Assembly (NCBI GenBank): GCA_037143195.1
Contig: JBAWZD010000002.1
Span: 3,206-67,205 of the forward strand
DNA length: 64,000 bases
From: a bacterium
GTDB taxonomy: Bacteria; Patescibacteriota; Minisyncoccia; Phycocordibacterales; UBA9973
Direction: 5' to 3'
Part shown: positions 10,246-61,551 of the stretch, piece by piece
Numbering within the stretch: position 1 is the stretch's first letter
Layout of the letters: each line of letters begins with the position of its first letter
Translations under genes and position numbers: made by a program
The notes under the pieces: model-generated
Told to the model about the DNA's origin: nothing
The model's input: the letters and a program-made list of their open reading frames with translations, nothing else
Database searches by the model: none

Positions 10246-10264
10246 TTTTTTGTTCAGTCGCGAA

Positions 10265-10379
10265 CAAAACCGAAAGACACTTCTTTGAAGAAGGCCTTTC
10301 GCAGGCGCTTGGCGCCGAGAAGCCCGCGAGCGAGCACGCGAGACGGGTTGCCTTTTCAAAGAAGCGTCTTTCGGTTTTG
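10265..10379. other. long imperfect hairpin (25-bp stem, ~65-nt GC-rich loop); candidate structured RNA/terminator
   Basis: The 5' arm caaaaccgaaagacacttctttgaa (10265-10289) pairs with ttcaaagaagcgtctttcggttttg (10355-10379). The single non-Watson-Crick position is A·C on the plus strand but G·U on the minus strand. The loop contains nested GC-rich hairpins (ggcgcttggcgcc). Confidence 0.4.
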
Positions 10380-10694
10380 CCCACGAGGCAACAAAAAAAG
10401 CATAAATCTCTAAATAATCCTTCAAACAGCTAGGTGTTAAAAGTAAGGAGACCGCGGAGGATGGCTGCAGCACTTCCGGAAACGAGCCCGGGAGCCAAAA
10501 CGTCCTTTACGAGATCCTATACGGCCCAAGAGCCTGATCACTTAGAGATTTATGCCTTCTTTAAAACGACAACCCATCTATCGTACTCCCTATCGCGCAT
10601 CGCGCAAAGGGAACAAATGGTATACTGTGTGTATACCCTGTGCAAAAGGTGGGTATTGATTCAATTACATGTAGTCTAGCATACGATGTTTTAA

Positions 10695-13227: not shown

Positions 13228-13243
13228 TTTCCTTCGCAAAAAG

Positions 13244-13280
13244 AAAATGCCCAAGCGTACGCTTGGGCATTTTCTGTATT
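13244..13280. terminator. bidirectional rho-independent terminator between convergent genes
   Basis: The hairpin is aaaatgcccaagc-gtac-gcttgggcatttt, flanked by an A-run and a T-run. It serves the + acidic ORF and the - tyrS. Confidence 0.6.
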
Positions 13281-13288
13281 CGTTCTTA

Positions 13289-21885: not shown

Positions 21886-22356
21886 ATGAACAACGAAAAG
21901 ATACATACACACATTAAAGGACTGCTCGAGAAAATCGGCTATGTCGAGAAGGATGTTGAGGTTTCGTATGATGAGAAGACGAATACCTATTGGTTTGCAA
22001 TCACCTCCCCGCACACACGTCTCCTTTTCAACCGCGATGGAGAGGCGCTGCAAGCCCTCAATCACGTTGCGACGAAGCTTGTGGAGCAACTGTTCCGTGA
22101 AGAGCAAACTCGCCCCCGAGTCGTTGTCGACGCAAACGGCCATGAGAAGAAAAAGATCGACAATCTCCGAGCTGTCGCGCACATGATGGCTGAGCGTGCG
22201 CGATATTTTAAATCGAGCATTGAGGTCGAGCCGATGGCTCCCCACGAACGTCGCATTGTGCACGAGTTCTTGTCTGAGATGTCCGATATTACGACGGAAT
22301 CGAAAGGAGAAGGCAAGAATCGTCACGTGGTCATCAAATATACAGGTGGAATGTAA
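21886..22356 (+). CDS. jag: Jag/KhpB RNA-binding protein (KH + R3H domains)
   Basis: The R3H motif region is EVEPMAPHERRIVHEFLSEMSDITTESKGEGKNRHVVI. Its position after yidC also fits. Confidence 0.8.
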   Translation: MNNEKIHTHIKGLLEKIGYVEKDVEVSYDEKTNTYWFAITSPHTRLLFNRDGEALQALNHVATKLVEQLFREEQTRPRVVVDANGHEKKKIDNLRAVAHMMAERARYFKSSIEVEPMAPHERRIVHEFLSEMSDITTESKGEGKNRHVVIKYTGGM

Positions 22357-22358
22357 AC

Positions 22359-22393
22359 AAAAAACCTCTTGGAATTCCAAGAGGTTTTTTGTT
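22359..22393. terminator. bidirectional intrinsic terminator
   Basis: aaaaaacctcttgg-aatt-ccaagaggtttttt is flanked by an A-run and a T-run. It lies between convergent jag (+) and the 22396 gene (-). Confidence 0.6.
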
Positions 22394-22395
22394 TG

Positions 22396-49173: not shown

Positions 49174-49180
49174 GTTCCAT

Positions 49181-49222
49181 GAAACAGAAAAACCCCCGAG
49201 AAATCGGGGGTTTTTCTGTTTC
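49181..49222. terminator. long stem-loop terminator between convergent genes
   Basis: gaaacagaaaaacccccg-agaaat-cgggggtttttctgtttc is an 18-bp stem. Confidence 0.55.
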
Positions 49223-49235
49223 ATGATGATTTCGT

Positions 49236-50206: not shown

Positions 50207-52360
50207 TTACACTTTTGGAACCTCAACAGGCTTCGGAAAGAAATCAGGTTTGATTGCCTTGATCGAAAGTGAGATACGTCCACGCTCAGCATCGACGGCG
50301 ACAACTTTGACTGGAACTTTCATTCCCTCTTTTACAAGATCAGTAACTTTGTTTACGCGCCACGGAGCAAGTTCTGAAATATGAACGAGTCCGTCAGTCG
50401 TTGAACTTATTTTCACAATCGCACCAACTTCAATTATTTTTACAACTTCACCTTCCATCGTTTCTCCAACTTTATATTCGTGGGTCATTTCCTGAACGAT
50501 GACGAGGGCTTTGTCGGCTGCTCCATTTTTTCCGGTGACATACACAGTTCCGTCATCTTCGATTGTAATTTCTGCGCCCGTTTTTTCGCGAATAGCGTTG
50601 ATTGTTTTTCCGCCACTTCCAATCACTCCACCAATTTGGTCGGGACGAATTTTTGTAACCAAAATTTTTGGAGCACTTGGGGAGATGTCACTTCTTGGAG
50701 CACTAATTTCTTTTTCAATAACATCAAGAATTTCGAGTCGTGCTTTGCGAGCTTGGGTCATCGCTTCTTTCAAAGCTTGTACTGGTACTCCACCAACTTT
50801 GATATCGAGTTGAATCGCAGTGATGCCTTCGCGAGTTCCCGCAACTTTGAAATCCATATCACCGTAGTGATCTTCTGGTCCTTGAATGTCAGTCAAGATT
50901 TTGTACTCACTCTGATTTCCTACATTTAAAATGAGACCCATCGCGATTCCGGCAACCGGTCGAAGAATCGGTACTCCACCATCCATAAGTGCAAGTGATG
51001 ATGCACAGATAGATGCTTGTGATGTTGATCCATTTGAAGCCATTGATTCAGACACGATGCGAATCGTGTACGGGAATGTCATCTTGTCGGGAATGATTGG
51101 TACGAGCGCTTTCTCAGCAAGAAATCCGTGCCCCATTTCACGACGATTGATTCCGCCGACACGGCCAGTCTCTCCTGCAGAATATGGTGGAAAATTGTAG
51201 TGATGCGTGAAGCGCTTCGTTCCGCGAATCTCCATGCCTTCGATGACCGTTGCGTCTTCTGGTCCACCAAGTGTGAGTACAGAGAGCACGTGTGTTTCTC
51301 CGCGGTAGAAAATTCCCGTGCCGTGAAGAACGGTTGAGAAATTACCTGCTTGTGCAAAGAGTGGACGGACTTGGTCGAAGGCACGTCCATCAGCGCGACG
51401 GTTTTCTTTGAGCGCCTTCTCATGTACGAGATCGTCGAGTGCTGATTCGAGATAATCCTTCGCCATTGAAATCGTCTCTTCGTTTTCAGCAAATTTTTCT
51501 GCAATGAGTGCGTTCCACTCGTCTTCAAGTTCGTGAAATCGCGCCTTCCCCATTTCAGGCTTGTCTCCTGCATTCAAAAAAATGGCATCTGTTTTTTTGC
51601 CAACAGTCTCGTTGAAAAGCGCGATGACTTCAGCTGGCATTGCGGGCGCAGGCATATTCATTTTTTGTTTGCCAATCTCTGAAACGATACTTTTCTGCCA
51701 TGCTTCGAGCGTCGCGATTGCAGGCATTGCCATATCGAGTGCTCCGCCCATTTTGGCTTCGTCGTATTCATACGACATTGCTTCGATCATCACGACGTTG
51801 CCATCTTTGCCACACACAGTGAGATCAAGTTCGTAATTCGACTCACCCGTGTTTGGAATGTATTGATCAAGACCAATCGATCCACCAGTTTTGTTGCGAC
51901 CAACGTGCACTGCACCAACGGGGCCACCCCATGGAATATCAGATGTGGCGAGTGCGAGCGAGGCAGCGTTGACTCCAAGTACCCCTGGGTCAGCTTGTCC
52001 GACGGCGAGTACGGTCACGATGACTTGCACAGCATTTTTGATGTGATGTGCGAAGAGTGGACGAATCGTGCGGTCGATAATACGCGCGGAGAGGATAGCC
52101 TCATCACTTGGGCGACCTTCGCGTTTGTTGTACTGACCTCCAAGAATGAGACCTGAGGCATAAAACTTCTCCATGTACTCGACAGTGAGATTGAAGAACC
52201 CACGATTGTCTTTCCCGTCTTTTGAAATACACGCAGTGGCAAGAACGATTGTTCCATCACATTTCAAAATGACGGATCCATTGGCCTGATCGACGAGGTC
52301 TGAAAAAACAGCGGTAATAGTTTTACCACCGACGACGACTGAATATTCTTTCGAATGCAT
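50207..52360 (-). CDS. pnp: polynucleotide phosphorylase
   Basis: Two RNase PH domains are present (GPEDHYGDMDFKVAGT), followed by KH and S1 (GEVVKIIEVGAIVKI...GLVHISEL). The protein is 717 aa. Confidence 0.95.
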   Translation of the reverse strand: MHSKEYSVVVGGKTITAVFSDLVDQANGSVILKCDGTIVLATACISKDGKDNRGFFNLTVEYMEKFYASGLILGGQYNKREGRPSDEAILSARIIDRTIRPLFAHHIKNAVQVIVTVLAVGQADPGVLGVNAASLALATSDIPWGGPVGAVHVGRNKTGGSIGLDQYIPNTGESNYELDLTVCGKDGNVVMIEAMSYEYDEAKMGGALDMAMPAIATLEAWQKSIVSEIGKQKMNMPAPAMPAEVIALFNETVGKKTDAIFLNAGDKPEMGKARFHELEDEWNALIAEKFAENEETISMAKDYLESALDDLVHEKALKENRRADGRAFDQVRPLFAQAGNFSTVLHGTGIFYRGETHVLSVLTLGGPEDATVIEGMEIRGTKRFTHHYNFPPYSAGETGRVGGINRREMGHGFLAEKALVPIIPDKMTFPYTIRIVSESMASNGSTSQASICASSLALMDGGVPILRPVAGIAMGLILNVGNQSEYKILTDIQGPEDHYGDMDFKVAGTREGITAIQLDIKVGGVPVQALKEAMTQARKARLEILDVIEKEISAPRSDISPSAPKILVTKIRPDQIGGVIGSGGKTINAIREKTGAEITIEDDGTVYVTGKNGAADKALVIVQEMTHEYKVGETMEGEVVKIIEVGAIVKISSTTDGLVHISELAPWRVNKVTDLVKEGMKVPVKVVAVDAERGRISLSIKAIKPDFFPKPVEVPKV

Positions 52361-52503
52361 ACTATATATAGGTGCCAGTACCGAGACCGTAAAATTGCCA
52401 ATTATGCATGCAATTCTATACGTCTCGGGGCTCGCAATTAATGATTAATACTCCAAATGCGATTCTACTCTTTTGTGGCAAAAAGAAAAGTCCGTTTGTG
52501 TGC

Positions 52504-52629
52504 GGAAGGAACCCTCCTTTTTGCAGTCGAGGACTGACCGAGCGAGCGGTTCGGGAGCGTAGTGCATACACCACAAAAATCAATTACGCGAGCAAGATTT
52601 CGCAGACAAGAAAAGGAGGCGTTACTTCC
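52504..52629. repeat. structured element copy A: ~88-nt conserved core closed by an 18-bp stem; homologous to, and inverted relative to, 53593..53750
   Basis: The core gcagtcgaggactgaccgagcgagcggttcgggagcgtagtgcatacaccacaaaaatcaattacgcgagcaagatttcgcagacaag (52523-52610) is about 90 percent identical to the reverse complement of 53629-53715. The closing arms are ggaaggaaccctcctttt and aaaaggaggcgttacttcc. The flanks also show weaker homology to copy B. Confidence 0.6.
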
Positions 52630-52643
52630 GTACACAGGGTTAC

Positions 52644-53165
52644 TTATCTTCGTCCACCACTGCGCATGAGGTATTTGTTTGGATTTTCGGAGAGATCGAG
52701 GAAATCGTCACAGACCTCTTTGAGTTTCATTGAGGAGGATTTTCCGAATGCGACGACTTCGACTTGCGTTCCACCATTCATCTGAAGATATTCGACGAGT
52801 GGAATGAAGTCTCCATCCCCTGAGGCAATGATAACAGTATCGACTTTGTGTGCCATCTTGATTGCATCAACGGCCAGACCGACGTCCCAGTCAGCTTTTT
52901 TCGCTCCACTTGAAAACACCTGAAGATCTTTAGTCTTGGTTTCGATACCGATTTTGGTGAGTGCATCAAAGAATGCTTTTTCATCCCCTGCCTCACTTGT
53001 GATGACGTACGCGATTGCGCGGATGAGTTTGCGACCGGCAAGTGCGTCTTTCAAAACTCCGGCGAAATTAACATATGATTTATACAGATTGCGGGCACTA
53101 TGATACAAATTCTGCGTGTCGATAAAAATGGCGACGCGCTGGTCTGGGTGTTTTACGATACTCAT
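52644..53165 (-). CDS. NYN-domain (LabA/PIN-like) putative nuclease, inserted between rpsO and pnp
   Basis: VAIFIDTQNLYHSARNL...VDTVIIASGDGDFIPLVEYLQMNGGTQVEVVAFGKSSS is the NYN (PF01936) pattern. The protein is 173 aa. Confidence 0.7.
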   Translation of the reverse strand: MSIVKHPDQRVAIFIDTQNLYHSARNLYKSYVNFAGVLKDALAGRKLIRAIAYVITSEAGDEKAFFDALTKIGIETKTKDLQVFSSGAKKADWDVGLAVDAIKMAHKVDTVIIASGDGDFIPLVEYLQMNGGTQVEVVAFGKSSSMKLKEVCDDFLDLSENPNKYLMRSGGRR

Positions 53166-53283
53166 ACAAAATACTTCCTGCTTATTATTAAAAAATACAA
53201 ACGACTTTTAAAAAGGTGAACGTGCTTAGTGTAACACAAAAAATGAGCACCCAAACAAAAATCCGGCGCGAGCCGGATTTTTG

Positions 53284-53547
53284 TTACTTAAGTTCGAGTT
53301 TCTTTACGACAGTTTCGTAACGAGACTTGTTCTTTCGTTCGAGGTATTTAAGGTGTGTTCGGCGATCTGCAACCATCTTGAGGAGGCCACGGCGGGAATG
53401 ATTATCCTTTTTGTGTTCCTTGAGGTGTTTTGCAAGTTCGTCAATGCGTGTGGACAAAATCGCGACCTGAACCTCTGGTGAACCAGTGTCCTTATCGTGA
53501 ATTTGGTGCTTTTTGACGACCGCCTGCTTCTTTTTTGTCTTTAACAT
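53284..53547 (-). CDS. rpsO: 30S ribosomal protein S15
   Basis: [73 protein letters not shown] fits S15. The ATG is at 53547; the ORF track is extended upstream. Confidence 0.9.
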
Positions 53548-53592
53548 AGCTAGGGCAATAGTAGCATAGATTCTAAAATGATGCAAGTACCC

Positions 53593-53750
53593 CTCGTGTG
53601 GGGCGCGCAAGCAGGCATGTTCCCTGCCTTGTCTGCGAAATCTTGCTCGCGTAATTGATTTTTGTGGTATACACGCTACGCTTCCGAACCGCTCGCTCGG
53701 TCAGTCCTCGACTGCGGCAGGGAAATACCTGCTTGCACACCCCACACGAG
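53593..53750. repeat. structured element copy B: same core (inverted) closed by a 35-bp imperfect stem, in rpsO 5' region, adjacent to xerC promoter
   Basis: The arm ctcgtgtggggcgcgcaagcaggcatgttccctgcc (53593-53628) pairs with ggcagggaaatacctgcttgcacaccccacacgag (53716-53750). The interior 87 nt is the reverse complement of the copy A core. It is GC-rich relative to the genome. Confidence 0.6.
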
Positions 53751-53795
53751 TGAGACTTATTATTTTGCGACATATGTTTGGTATACTATATATAC

Positions 53796-54746
53796 ATGAG
53801 TAACGAGATTGAACGACTGAAACGAGAATTTCTCGAATACATGGAGATCGAACGAGGTTCAAGCCTCAAGACTGTTGGTAATTACGACCGATATCTTACT
53901 CGTCTGATTACTTTTTCGAAACTTACTTCTCCAAAAGATATTACCGATGACGCTCTCCGTGAATTTCGTCTCCACCTCAATCGCTCCCCTGGTGTTGCAG
54001 TCAAAGGACAGTCGCGTAGCACGATGAAAAAAAATAGCCAAAACTATCATCTCATCGCCACACGCAGATTTTTGAAATATCTCATGAAGCGCGGAATTAC
54101 TGCGCTCTCCCCTGACCGCATCGAGCTCGCAAAAGTTGGAGGGAGACAGCTCGACCTCATGTCGAGTACAGAGTTGAAACGTTTGCTCGATGCCCCGCTC
54201 CAAGAAACGGATTCCCAAAAGAATGTTTCTGCGCTTCGTGACAAGGCGATACTAGAACTATTTTTTTCGACGGGACTTCGTCTTGCGGAATTGTGCTCAC
54301 TCAATCGCGATCTTGATTTGTCAAAAGACGAATTCTCAATTCGTGGAAAGGGAGAAAAGGTACGTGTCGTTTTTTTGTCTGAGAGCGCAAAGAGTGCGAT
54401 CAAGGCATATCTCGCCTTGCGCAAAGATATGGATGAACCAATGTTCGTACAGTTTTCTCGAAACAAGAGTGCGTCTGAAGGAAATCGCAATGAATCCGCG
54501 CGGCTAACGCCGCGCTCCATCGAGCGCCTCGTCAAAAAATATTCCATCATCGCTGGTATCTCACGCAAAGTCACTCCGCACATCTTGCGTCACAGTTTTG
54601 CGACCGATCTTCTCGAAAATGGTGCAGACATTCGCAGTGTCCAAGTGATGCTTGGTCATGCGAACATTCAGACGACACAAATATATACGCACGTGACCGA
54701 CAAACAACTCAAGGAGATTCACAAGAAATTCCACAGCAATAAGTAG
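53796..54746 (+). CDS. xerC: tyrosine site-specific recombinase XerC/XerD family
   Basis: The N-terminal SAM-like domain is LEYMEIERGSSLKTVGNYDRYL. The catalytic region is HILRHSFATDLLENGADIRSVQVMLGHANIQTTQIYTHV (RHRY motif). The ATG is at 53796; the listed ORF starts at a TTG at 53778. Confidence 0.85.
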   Translation: MSNEIERLKREFLEYMEIERGSSLKTVGNYDRYLTRLITFSKLTSPKDITDDALREFRLHLNRSPGVAVKGQSRSTMKKNSQNYHLIATRRFLKYLMKRGITALSPDRIELAKVGGRQLDLMSSTELKRLLDAPLQETDSQKNVSALRDKAILELFFSTGLRLAELCSLNRDLDLSKDEFSIRGKGEKVRVVFLSESAKSAIKAYLALRKDMDEPMFVQFSRNKSASEGNRNESARLTPRSIERLVKKYSIIAGISRKVTPHILRHSFATDLLENGADIRSVQVMLGHANIQTTQIYTHVTDKQLKEIHKKFHSNK

Positions 54747-60411: not shown

Positions 60412-60483
60412 TGCACCTGCCAGGATTCGAACCTGGAATAACGGTTTCGAAGACCGTTGTGATATCCATTTCACTACGGGTGC
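60412..60483 (-). tRNA. tRNA-Arg (anticodon UCG), CCA not encoded
   Basis: GCACCCG-UA-GUGA-AAUGGAUA-UCAC-A-ACGGU-CUUCGAA-ACCGU-UAUU-CCAGG-UUCGAAU-CCUGG-CAGGUGC-A gives a canonical cloverleaf with a canonical T-loop. There is one acceptor mismatch (C6·A67). Confidence 0.7.
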
Positions 60484-60508
60484 AGAAATTAATTAATAAT
60501 TCTTTGCG

Positions 60509-60537
60509 ATTATACGCTATTTTCGTCAATGTGCCAA
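60509..60537 (-). promoter_or_regulatory. sigma70-like promoter for tRNA-Arg/cca (minus strand)
   Basis: On the minus strand, TTGGCA, a 17-bp spacer and TATAAT lie about 25 nt upstream of the tRNA 5' end. Confidence 0.4.
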
Positions 60538-60569
60538 ATATTCTTTGAGAAATAAGGGTAGATATATAA

Positions 60570-60598
60570 TTGCAAAATTTAGACAAAAAGGGTAGAAT
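60570..60598 (+). promoter_or_regulatory. sigma70-like promoter for tRNA-Gly(GCC)
   Basis: TTGCAA, a 17-bp spacer and TAGAAT lie about 16 nt upstream of the tRNA start. Confidence 0.4.
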
Positions 60599-60614
60599 TG
60601 CTCGGTAGATTTTT

Positions 60615-60685
60615 GCGGCCATGGTTTAGTGGTAGAACACGTCCTTGCCAAGGATGAGACGGGAGTCCGATTCTCCCTGGCCGCA
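60615..60685 (+). tRNA. tRNA-Gly (anticodon GCC), CCA not encoded
   Basis: The acceptor stem GCGGCCA/UGGCCGC is 7 bp. The anticodon arm is CGUCC-UUGCCAA-GGAUG. The T-arm is GGGAG-UCCGAUU-CUCCC, which has the unusual C55. The discriminator is A. Confidence 0.7.
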
Positions 60686-60890
60686 CAAAGAATTTGTATT
60701 GGAACTATTTTGGTTTGAAAAAGACACAGTTTCATTCTATCGGAACAATTGTGCAAAACTGTGGATAAAGGTGGGGACTGTGTGCATAAAGGACACTTTT
60801 GCAAAGTGTCAGTATAAAAAATACGTTGATAAATAAGGATTTTATAAAGTACAGACTTTATAAACACCAATGTGAATAAGTCACACATAT

Positions 60891-61289
60891 ATGCCGAAGG
60901 TCTTTACATCAAAGTCACAAAGGACGGGGGAGTTTGGAGAGCAAATTGCTGTCCGATACTTGCAACGTAAGGGTTTTGTCGTTATTGAACGCAATTACAC
61001 GCGACCGTGTGGTGAAATCGATATTATTGCCCAATTTGGGGGTATCCGTCACTTTGTCGAGGTCAAAGCAATGACGGGAGCTCTCTCAAGCGTACAGTCA
61101 CGCGAAGGTATTTACCGTCCTGAAGACGGCATGCATTTTGAGAAGGTCCGAAGATTGCGTCGGACAGTAGCATCTTACCTCTCTGAAGGACACTGGAAGG
61201 GGGAATGGCAGTTTGATCTCGTTACTATTTGGCTGAATCCAACCACTCGGCAAGCGCAAGTGAAACACCTCGATAACATTATTTTATAA
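60891..61289 (+). CDS. yraN: YraN/UPF0102 family endonuclease
   Basis: GEFGEQIAVRYLQRKGFVVIERNYTRPCGEIDIIAQFGGIRHFVEVKA is the family signature. Confidence 0.8.
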   Translation: MPKVFTSKSQRTGEFGEQIAVRYLQRKGFVVIERNYTRPCGEIDIIAQFGGIRHFVEVKAMTGALSSVQSREGIYRPEDGMHFEKVRRLRRTVASYLSEGHWKGEWQFDLVTIWLNPTTRQAQVKHLDNIIL

Positions 61290-61339
61290 GCAAAAAAATT
61301 GTATTTCTTTCAAAGTACTGCTATAGTGTCTCGGTGCTA

Positions 61340-61410
61340 CGGGGCGTAGTATATCGGTAGTATGCGTGTTTTGGGAACACGAGGGCCGAGTTCGATTCTC
61401 GGCGCCCCGA
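61340..61410 (+). tRNA. tRNA-Pro (anticodon UGG), CCA not encoded
   Basis: The acceptor CGGGGCG/CGCCCCG has the Pro-specific C1:G72. The anticodon arm is CGUGU-UUUGGGA-ACACG. The T-loop is UUCGAUU. The discriminator is A. Confidence 0.7.
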
Positions 61411-61438
61411 CACTCTTTTGCTCAATTCTGAGTAAATA

Positions 61439-61470
61439 CAAAAATACCAAGCAATTGCTTGGTATTTTTG
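61439..61470. terminator. bidirectional terminator between convergent tRNAs
   Basis: caaaaataccaagc-aatt-gcttggtatttttg. Confidence 0.5.
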
Positions 61471-61480
61471 TATTTCGCTG

Positions 61481-61551
61481 TGCGGGATAGGAGAGTCGAA
61501 CTCCTCACCACAGTTTGGAAAACTGTTGTTTTACCGATAAACTAATCCCGC
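61481..61551 (-). tRNA. tRNA-Gly (anticodon UCC), CCA not encoded
   Basis: GCGGGAU-UA-GUUU-AUCGGUA-AAAC-A-ACAGU-UUUCCAA-ACUGU-GGUG-AGGAG-UUCGACU-CUCCU-AUCCCGC-A. Anticodon loop positions 34-36 are UCC. Confidence 0.7.

Follow-up and report, generated by a model that had tools for sequence, protein, structure and literature searches.

A two-copy hairpin module beside rpsO, an NYN-domain gene and pnp in three Patescibacteria lineages

The 64,000-nt stretch of Patescibacteria DNA analyzed here (contig JBAWZD010000002.1, positions 3,206 to 67,205; hereafter the window, with coordinates counted from its first nucleotide) contains two paralogous copies, A and B, of a hairpin module of about 150-180 nt, in which a multi-hairpin core of about 88 nt is carried on a long helix. 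Element A lies between an NYN-domain gene and the gene for PNPase (pnp), and element B between rpsO, encoding ribosomal protein S15, and a divergent gene for an Xer-type tyrosine recombinase (xerC). Together they represent an intergenic palindromic, structured element with unusual evolutionary behaviour and a narrow distribution, which fails the defining tests of each known family tested. Our tentative interpretation, to which we give somewhat less than an even chance, is that of a lineage-specific, two-copy structured hairpin module under purifying selection, acting most likely as RNA. The parts of the two elements are listed below; bit scores refer to a covariance model (R1) built from six element copies.

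52495..52638, plus strand: element A, whole hairpin module; the core-sense strand is the plus strand of the window, antisense to the NYN gene and pnp; R1 score 125.8 bits.
52523..52610, plus strand: core of A, three small hairpins plus an A-rich linker; 94% identity with the core of B.
52495..52522, plus strand: 5' arm of the closing helix of A, pairing with 52610-52638; 27 Watson-Crick, 3 G.U and 0 A.C in the arm alignment.
52610..52638, plus strand: 3' arm of the closing helix of A; one C is bulged out 9-10 bp away from the core.
53584..53759, minus strand: element B, whole hairpin module; the core-sense strand is the minus strand of the window, in the same direction as rpsO; R1 score 138.9 bits.
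53628..53715, minus strand: core of B, delimited by inverted-repeat search, BLAST and alignment.
53716..53759, minus strand (and read on it): 5' arm of the closing helix of B; 44 Watson-Crick, 4 G.U and 1 A.C in the arm alignment.
53584..53629, minus strand: 3' arm of the closing helix of B; one C is bulged out 9 bp away from the core, and the outer end of the arm extends into the putative rpsO -35 hexamer.

An inverted-repeat search of the window returned arms of 95 nt at 52523-52617 and 53621-53715 that are 92% complementary; the 88-nt cores within them are 94.3% identical by BLAST, and a core-derived 32-mer occurs exactly twice in the window, with no occurrence expected. The initial annotation of the region, made from the same DNA, had described these inverted cores as about 90% identical, each enclosed in its own helix and not explained by coding, and in this it was right: the feature is real, non-coding and structured. 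The closing stems are long and self-complementary, as it had said, but its lengths of 18 and 35 bp were too short. Folding of the plus strand gives A about 26 closing pairs (52495-52522 with 52610-52638; -61.1 kcal/mol, z = -6.1), and folding of the minus strand gives B about 43 (53584-53629 with 53716-53759; -99.9 kcal/mol, z = -10.5). The opposite strands fold worse, at -51.4 kcal/mol for A (minus) and -82.8 kcal/mol for B (plus). The arms of A and those of B are unrelated in sequence, each pair being self-complementary.

Further evidence comes from comparison of six element sequences, five of them distinct, from three lineages: W (the window and the identical Logan contig L050), X (contigs L001-L003 and L005-L010) and Y (L004 and L011). 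The three are more distant from one another than close strains would be: XerC is 95-96% identical among them in protein and 84-85% in DNA, and identity at four-fold degenerate sites is 49-54% for xerC and 56-65% for the NYN gene; at about 50% identity of such sites, unconstrained sequence is expected to be largely randomised. The first ~35 nt of the core (block 1, AGTCGAGGACTGACCGAGCGAGCGGTTCGG plus a few nucleotides) are nevertheless identical in all six sequences, and the last ~40 nt (block 2) differ at one or two positions, whereas the ~20 nt in the middle vary freely. Judged by this comparison, the core evolves under strong purifying selection.

The helix behaves differently. Between lineages, orthologous arms have a similarity of only about 60%; within each element they are still complementary, and 93% of the alignment cells are paired. 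Double changes affect 18 of the 28 pairs of the closing helix, a number reached in 0 of 500 shuffles and compared with 4-6 in slid-partner controls, which bears out the covariation-like stem pattern noticed earlier. By the same alignment the helix has been kept paired while its sequence drifted. Each of the five distinct elements, despite differing arm sequences, has a single bulged base in the 3' arm of the core-sense strand, 9-10 bp away from the core; as far as the alignment goes, this one-base bulge is held at a fixed distance from the core.

Several asymmetries distinguish the two strands. The core-sense strand folds better in five of the six elements, the wobbles in the stems of the unique elements comprise 15 G.U against 5 A.C when read on that strand, and the invariant internal hairpins include G.U pairs, the one change in hairpin 3 being C-G to U.G. 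Small as these numbers are, fold, wobble and G.U asymmetry suggest that one particular strand functions in single-stranded form, most simply as RNA. Substitutions within the two conserved blocks were found only in copies that are antisense to the flanking genes (block 1 of the A element of lineage W and block 2 of the B element of lineage Y), which hints that the gene-sense orientation could be the working one, the counts being too small to establish this.

The orientation of the core has changed at both sites. At site B the window, L001 and L003 carry it one way, and L004 and L011, which are two independent assemblies, the other. At site A, where the comparison covers lineages W and X (the contigs of lineage Y end after the NYN gene), the window is opposite to L001, L005, L006, L007 and L009, i.e., to five independent samples of lineage X. 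As a result, the A and B cores form an inverted pair in the window and direct repeats in lineage X (L001); the key loci are free of N gaps. The bulge moves with the core in the flipped copies, and so the inverted unit must include at least the core and the inner ~10 bp of both arms. Read from these alignments, each module was inverted in place in some lineages. Contigs of the same lineage all agree (five samples of X at A, two assemblies of Y at B), so that the orientations look fixed between lineages rather than phase-variable. The only same-strain contig found for comparison of orientation within a population was L050, which is identical to the window and broken inside the core of B; look-ups with pnp and rpsO were empty.

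Both orientations at both sites among close lineages, and a core bracketed by inverted repeats right beside promoters, are what would be expected of an invertible switch (inverton), in which flipping of the core, with or without a recombinase, toggles a promoter or terminator for rpsO, xerC or pnp within the population. We regard such a switch as very improbable. A scan for sigma-70-type promoters found no promoter-like site in 52523-52610 or 53628-53715 on either strand, and the part of the core able to host a -10 hexamer is the variable part. Moreover, the orientation is uniform among the contigs of each lineage, and the inverted repeats are not conserved, unlike the sites of invertases.

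The same orientation data bear on two long-range models proposed in the initial annotation. In the first, A and B pair over about 90 nt in a long minus-strand transcript to form an RNase III site; in the second, they are inverted recombination sites through which the 1.1-kb rpsO-NYN segment is inverted by the adjacent Xer recombinase. The cores of the window, inverted and 92-94% complementary, would suit both, but we give these models very little chance of being correct. The cores are direct in lineage X (L001, without N gaps), which excludes pairing and inversion there; each element flips alone, and the potential for pairing is not conserved. A terminator separates rpsO from the NYN gene. The rpsO-NYN segment has one orientation in every contig that spans it together with a flanking gene, the position of the recombinase gene is older than the element, and the stems, as the potential recombination sites, lack sequence conservation. 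Rearrangement was seen in a single contig, L002, as a tandem duplication through direct cores and not as an inversion.

In L002 (5619-7633) the rpsO-NYN segment is present twice in tandem, joined via a hybrid element with the left part of A and the right part of B; this arrangement could result from unequal recombination between the direct cores of lineage X or from an assembly artefact. Among L003, L006, L008, L010 and L050, several contigs end inside the core, and B of L003 contains an N gap. These ends represent repeat-induced assembly breaks or possibly real unequal recombination.

Within one genome, the variable middle of the core is of the same type in A and B, and the A element of lineage X (X_A) has B-type inner arms inside unrelated outer arms. 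These two features indicate that A and B exchange sequence; on this evidence, the two copies in one genome have been homogenised with each other. Copying of at least 130 nt, as one hairpin unit, from one site to the other is the probable origin of the second copy.

The distribution of the element is narrow. It was found in contigs encoding exactly the same NYN protein and in one GTDB genome, in three lineages (W, X and Y) in all. A core 23-mer is present in one of 185,579 GTDB species genomes, with one hit there. Exact-pattern scans gave no matches to the 23-mer and 18-mer core patterns in IMG/VR and none to a core 20-mer in JGI metagenomes; an 18-mer of block 2 had 21 matches in JGI metagenomes, all by chance, the rest of the core being absent. 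A blastn comparison of B with phage and plasmid records gave no match. Model R1 recovered only the known copies in the window and 34 related loci, with no remote copy among them. The copy count proposed earlier as a check thus gives two in the 64-kb window, with carriers limited to W, X and Y, and a literature search found no published description of such an element.

Element-free relatives, whose NYN proteins are 86-97% identical, have the gene order methyltransferase-xerC(-)-rpsO-NYN, often followed by pnp. Their spacers at the two sites are 12-32 nt at the shortest; in L018, 32 nt separate xerC from rpsO and 12 nt separate the NYN gene from pnp. Local alignments of the core to the empty sites were no better than those of shuffled sequences. 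Since element-free relatives keep the gene order with compact, remnant-free sites, the two elements are insertions into an older gene arrangement: the module was inserted at two intergenic sites of xerC-rpsO-NYN-pnp in the common ancestor of the three Patescibacteria lineages. This also disposes of the suggestion that the element delivered the NYN gene into the operon.

A lineage-specific insertion at sites that are compact in relatives is one argument for a selfish non-autonomous palindromic mobile element similar to miniature inverted-repeat transposable elements (MITEs), PATE or REPIN, which would have inserted at B and hopped about 1.1 kb into the loop of a terminator hairpin at A, its core being recognised by a transposase or nuclease encoded elsewhere in the genome. 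The second copy indeed stands where the element-free relative L016 has a plain terminator hairpin, the B-type inner arms of X_A suggest that a unit of at least 130 nt was copied, and assemblies are frequently interrupted within the core, as is usual at repeats. Still, we consider this origin unlikely as an explanation of the element. Only two copies were found in 64 kb, with no extra covariance-model hits in any locus, a single stretch in GTDB (one 23-mer hit in the sole element-bearing genome) and none in JGI or IMG/VR, where a MITE should have multiple dispersed copies. The copies occupy the same orthologous sites in three lineages with synonymous sites near saturation, and so give no indication that the element still moves. 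Terminal inverted repeats differ wholly between A and B and are about 60% alike between orthologs while the centre is conserved, the reverse of a MITE. Comparison with the empty sites of L012, L014, L016, L017 and L026 revealed no target-site duplication, and the bases adjacent to the core differ in every copy, without a common target motif. No transposase gene was called in a stretch of about 12.5 kb around the element in L001. Finally, a selfish element that does not move would not hold 35 nt invariant. The MITE-like nature proposed in the initial annotation is, in the strict sense, not supported by copy number, termini or target sites.

The neighbouring genes, all of which had been named correctly before and were confirmed by Pfam, and the signals around the elements are as follows.

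50207-52360, minus strand: PNPase gene, pnp (Pfam).
52644..53165, minus strand: NYN-domain gene (PF01936, E = 1.8e-35).
53284..53547, minus strand: rpsO, ribosomal protein S15 (PF00312, E = 8e-32); start set by alignment to relatives.
53796..54746, plus strand: xerC, Xer-type tyrosine recombinase gene (PF00589), divergently adjacent to B.
53254..53285, no strand: perfect bidirectional terminator between rpsO and the NYN gene (inverted repeat I3, 14-nt arms, 100% complementary, 4-nt loop); context, outside the element.
52480..52489, minus strand: U-tract UUUUCUUUUU (in gene direction), read from the sequence, following hairpin A in intrinsic-terminator geometry for the NYN transcript.
53558..53586, minus strand: putative rpsO promoter TTGCAT-N17-TACTAT (TTGCAT 53586-53581, TACTAT 53563-53558), downstream of B; motif kept in element-free L012, L014, L017 and L026.

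In gene direction, hairpin A starts right at the NYN stop codon, and the U-tract comes after it, as in an intrinsic terminator (a G+C-rich hairpin and a U-tract downstream of a gene). L016 has a plain terminator hairpin (15-bp stem, 7-nt loop) before the same T-tract, and both this tract and the pnp leader downstream of site A are kept in element-free relatives. From these three observations (the start at the NYN stop codon, the U-tract and the terminator of L016), A occupies the position of a terminator hairpin, with terminator geometry and the core in the loop. The loops of intrinsic terminators are usually 3-8 nt long, and the 88-nt structured loop of A is far outside that range. Element B takes up the space separating the conserved sequences upstream of the divergent xerC and rpsO promoters. 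It had been assigned to the rpsO leader, but the position of the putative promoter places it probably upstream of that promoter and not in the leader.

The proximity of B to xerC calls for consideration of a DNA-level site, i.e., a folded hairpin or duplex bound by a recombinase or another protein, as an analogue of attC, the CTX attP hairpin or pdif; the neighbouring Xer would then explain the flips. Apart from the divergently adjacent recombinase gene, this is favoured by the variable stem with kept pairing and one extrahelical base, a pattern typical of attC, and by the tolerance of flips, as for an orientation-independent DNA site. The wobbles could be accommodated too, G.T being the least destabilising mismatch in DNA hairpins. 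We nevertheless find the explanation improbable. The recombinase scores about 227 bits with XerD/XerC models, 212 with XerA and 122 with the integron integrase model TIGR02249, the cut-off of which is 265 (NCBIfam). It is present beside rpsO in many element-free relatives, and this adjacency shows that the position of xerC predates the elements. The arms, read by eye, contain neither GTTRRRY / RYYYAAC boxes nor a dif-like 11-6-11 palindrome; the terminal loop of attC is variable, and here the terminal part is conserved; and the flanked rpsO-NYN segment is ancestral, not a cassette.

Integron membership, tested separately, was rejected: the recombinase is not of the IntI type by the TIGR02249 cut-off, none of the five distinct elements has R''/R' boxes (RYYYAAC ... 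GTTRRRY) in its outer arms (read by eye), and the flanked genes are not mobile cassettes, as rpsO-NYN keeps its place in relatives without the hairpins. Comparison with Xer/dif or pdif sites found inverted repeats of 5-3-5 and 6-5-6 in the conserved blocks and no visible palindrome of ~28 bp with two 11-bp arms and a 6-8-bp spacer, a general pattern from which the dif consensus of this phylum may differ.

If the module indeed acts as RNA, its active form would be a transcript of the core-sense strand, with the long helix as a double-stranded stem and the invariant core as a recognition platform for a trans-acting protein or RNase. At site A, immediately ahead of the pnp leader, the helix might also terminate the NYN message and form its 3'-end hairpin. 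Inversion would proceed via recombination or replication template switching between the arms of the module itself rather than through the neighbouring Xer recombinase, and gene conversion between A and B would keep the flipped copy intact. Template switching has been reported to yield multi-base compensatory changes and loop inversions in RNA genes (PMC8794818).

Several observations weigh against the RNA interpretation. First, template switching could hold the arms complementary mechanically, without selection. Second, the three small internal hairpins are invariant apart from one C-G to U.G change in hairpin 3, and being invariant they provide no evidence of covariation. Third, the excess of G.U is modest, the elements are non-independent, and the B element of lineage X is opposite in direction. 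Fourth, an island of 95-100% identity beside B indicates gene flow among W, X and Y, and part of the conservation of the core could thus be due to recent exchange; exchange of the whole core is disfavoured by the diverged core middle and arms. Finally, the consensus scan of both strands, limited to the sigma-70 type, gave no promoter inside either core, and A of the window is oriented antisense to the one transcription unit that is obvious there. With A antisense and B probably upstream of the rpsO promoter, a role as RNA requires postulated transcription, e.g., from divergent or bidirectional promoters.

A bolder possibility, which we think quite unlikely, is a new class of structured RNA or a folded-DNA site with a function set by its orientation. 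Flips within the module's own arms, without a dedicated invertase, would switch the strand that yields the core and thereby rewire termination, processing or regulation of the genes for S15, the NYN nuclease and PNPase, and the core with its bulge would dock one of those proteins.

The identity island occupies 53107-53595, about 0.5 kb comprising the rpsO promoter, rpsO, the rpsO-NYN spacer and the first ~60 nt of the NYN gene, and stops exactly at the outer edge of element B. Within it the four-fold sites of rpsO are 92-97% identical among W, X and Y, compared with about 50% in xerC and about 60% in the NYN gene; they are about 50% identical to those of element-free relatives, which argues against general synonymous constraint on rpsO. 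From this contrast, the island looks like the trace of recent gene flow or a sweep.

Some other features of the neighbourhood were observed. The 12-mer ATACTATATATA abuts the start codons of both pnp (minus strand, 52359-52370) and xerC (plus strand, 53783-53794), and TACTAT lies 10 nt ahead of the ATG of rpsO. The two motifs suggest that the host may have leaderless or very-short-leader mRNAs with a shared -10-like start context. Upstream of pnp (52372-52440, minus strand) there is a two-tier hairpin CCGAGAC...AAUUGC-loop-GCAAUU...GGUCUCGG, kept with its flanks in W, X and element-free L014 and L016 and without a match in Rfam; it could be a leader or regulatory structure of pnp, or a promoter region. 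Lineages with a difference of 4-5% in XerC have NYN proteins that are 100% identical, and this protein has more than 8000 close homologues, labelled Nomurabacteria or Pacebacteria where named; the gene order xerC-rpsO-NYN(-pnp) is widely kept (loci L001-L028). This degree of conservation suggests a core role for the NYN nuclease in RNA metabolism of Patescibacteria.

Searches against known families were negative for both elements. With Rfam 15, the check suggested by the initial annotation, nothing overlapped A or B at E <= 5 in 52300-53900, and B alone, with lax filters, had no match at E <= 10; at the gathering score the whole window yielded four tRNAs only (60412-61551). A coding function was rejected as well: the reading frame open across the two copies of the window is interrupted by stops in L004 and L011, a stop in the window interrupts the one that L004 keeps open, and the third frame contains TGA in all. 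Two open reading frames of the window that cross the cores had no match in Pfam. Complements of the single-stranded linker AAAATCAATTACG occur in the window at chance level, and GC skew, calculated with regard to the replication origin or terminus, was uninformative at window scale.

Other palindromic structures are present elsewhere in the window. An intergenic region of about 450 nt contains, at 10246-10562, two long-stem, large-loop inverted repeats (44-nt arms, 84%, with a 65-nt loop; 27-nt arms, 85%, with a 116-nt loop; RNA fold z = -8.1) without an Rfam match, and the cores of A and B have no sequence similarity to these hairpins. Perfect or near-perfect palindromes with A-/T-tract flanks, resembling bidirectional intrinsic terminators, were found at 49178-49225, 61434-61475, 22355-22394 and 13235-13282.

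Genomes of Patescibacteria are tiny and tightly packed, and therefore the long-kept insertion of two non-coding modules beside the genes for S15, the NYN nuclease and PNPase demands a reason. The element combines an invariant core on a helix that is rewritten with its pairing preserved, in-place inversion of about 110 nt between close lineages, and concerted evolution of two copies. To our knowledge, very few classes of regulatory RNA have been described in Patescibacteria; if the core RNA is bound or cut by a neighbouring protein of RNA metabolism, the element would represent a new one. Even as a merely tolerated palindromic insertion, it would illustrate how replication or recombination creates, maintains and flips hairpins, and it cautions that "covariation" in a stem can originate mechanically.

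The element shares features with several known systems. The intergenic hairpin between rpsO and pnp of Escherichia coli, in the pnp leader, is an RNase III-cut stem with which autoregulation of PNPase starts. Similarly, A forms a long helix, beside a terminator T-tract, in the interval from the gene preceding pnp to the pnp leader; unlike its E. coli counterpart, to which it has no sequence or Rfam relationship, it has a conserved 88-nt core in the loop, in either orientation, and a second copy upstream of rpsO. With bacterial MITEs and palindromic repeats (Correia/NEMIS, ERIC, RUP, REP/REPIN, PATE) the element has in common that it is a short non-coding intergenic hairpin insertion, lineage-specific and located near promoters or terminators; these families have conserved termini or REP arms and high copy numbers, whereas here the arms of A and B differ, the centre is conserved, and there are two copies without target duplication. 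As in integron attC sites, the sequence of the stem varies while its pairing and an extrahelical base are kept, and a tyrosine recombinase is encoded divergently next door; however, that recombinase is of the Xer type and predates the element, the R/L box consensus is absent, the terminal structure is conserved, and the flanked genes are core genes. Invertons, such as fimS and the PSA promoters of Bacteroides, also have inverted repeats bracketing a segment seen both ways, with a tyrosine recombinase gene nearby, but the invertible part here contains no promoter, the repeats are not conserved, the orientation looks fixed in each lineage, and the recombinase is not specific to element-bearing genomes. 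Finally, small hairpin-loop inversions and template-switch mutations, known from RNA genes (PMC8794818) and from chloroplast spacers, likewise produce loops in both orientations among close relatives and multi-base compensatory replacement of stems; most loop inversions reported so far span a few nucleotides (PMC8794818), while the unit inverted here has about 110 nt or more and carries a strongly conserved, functional-looking core.

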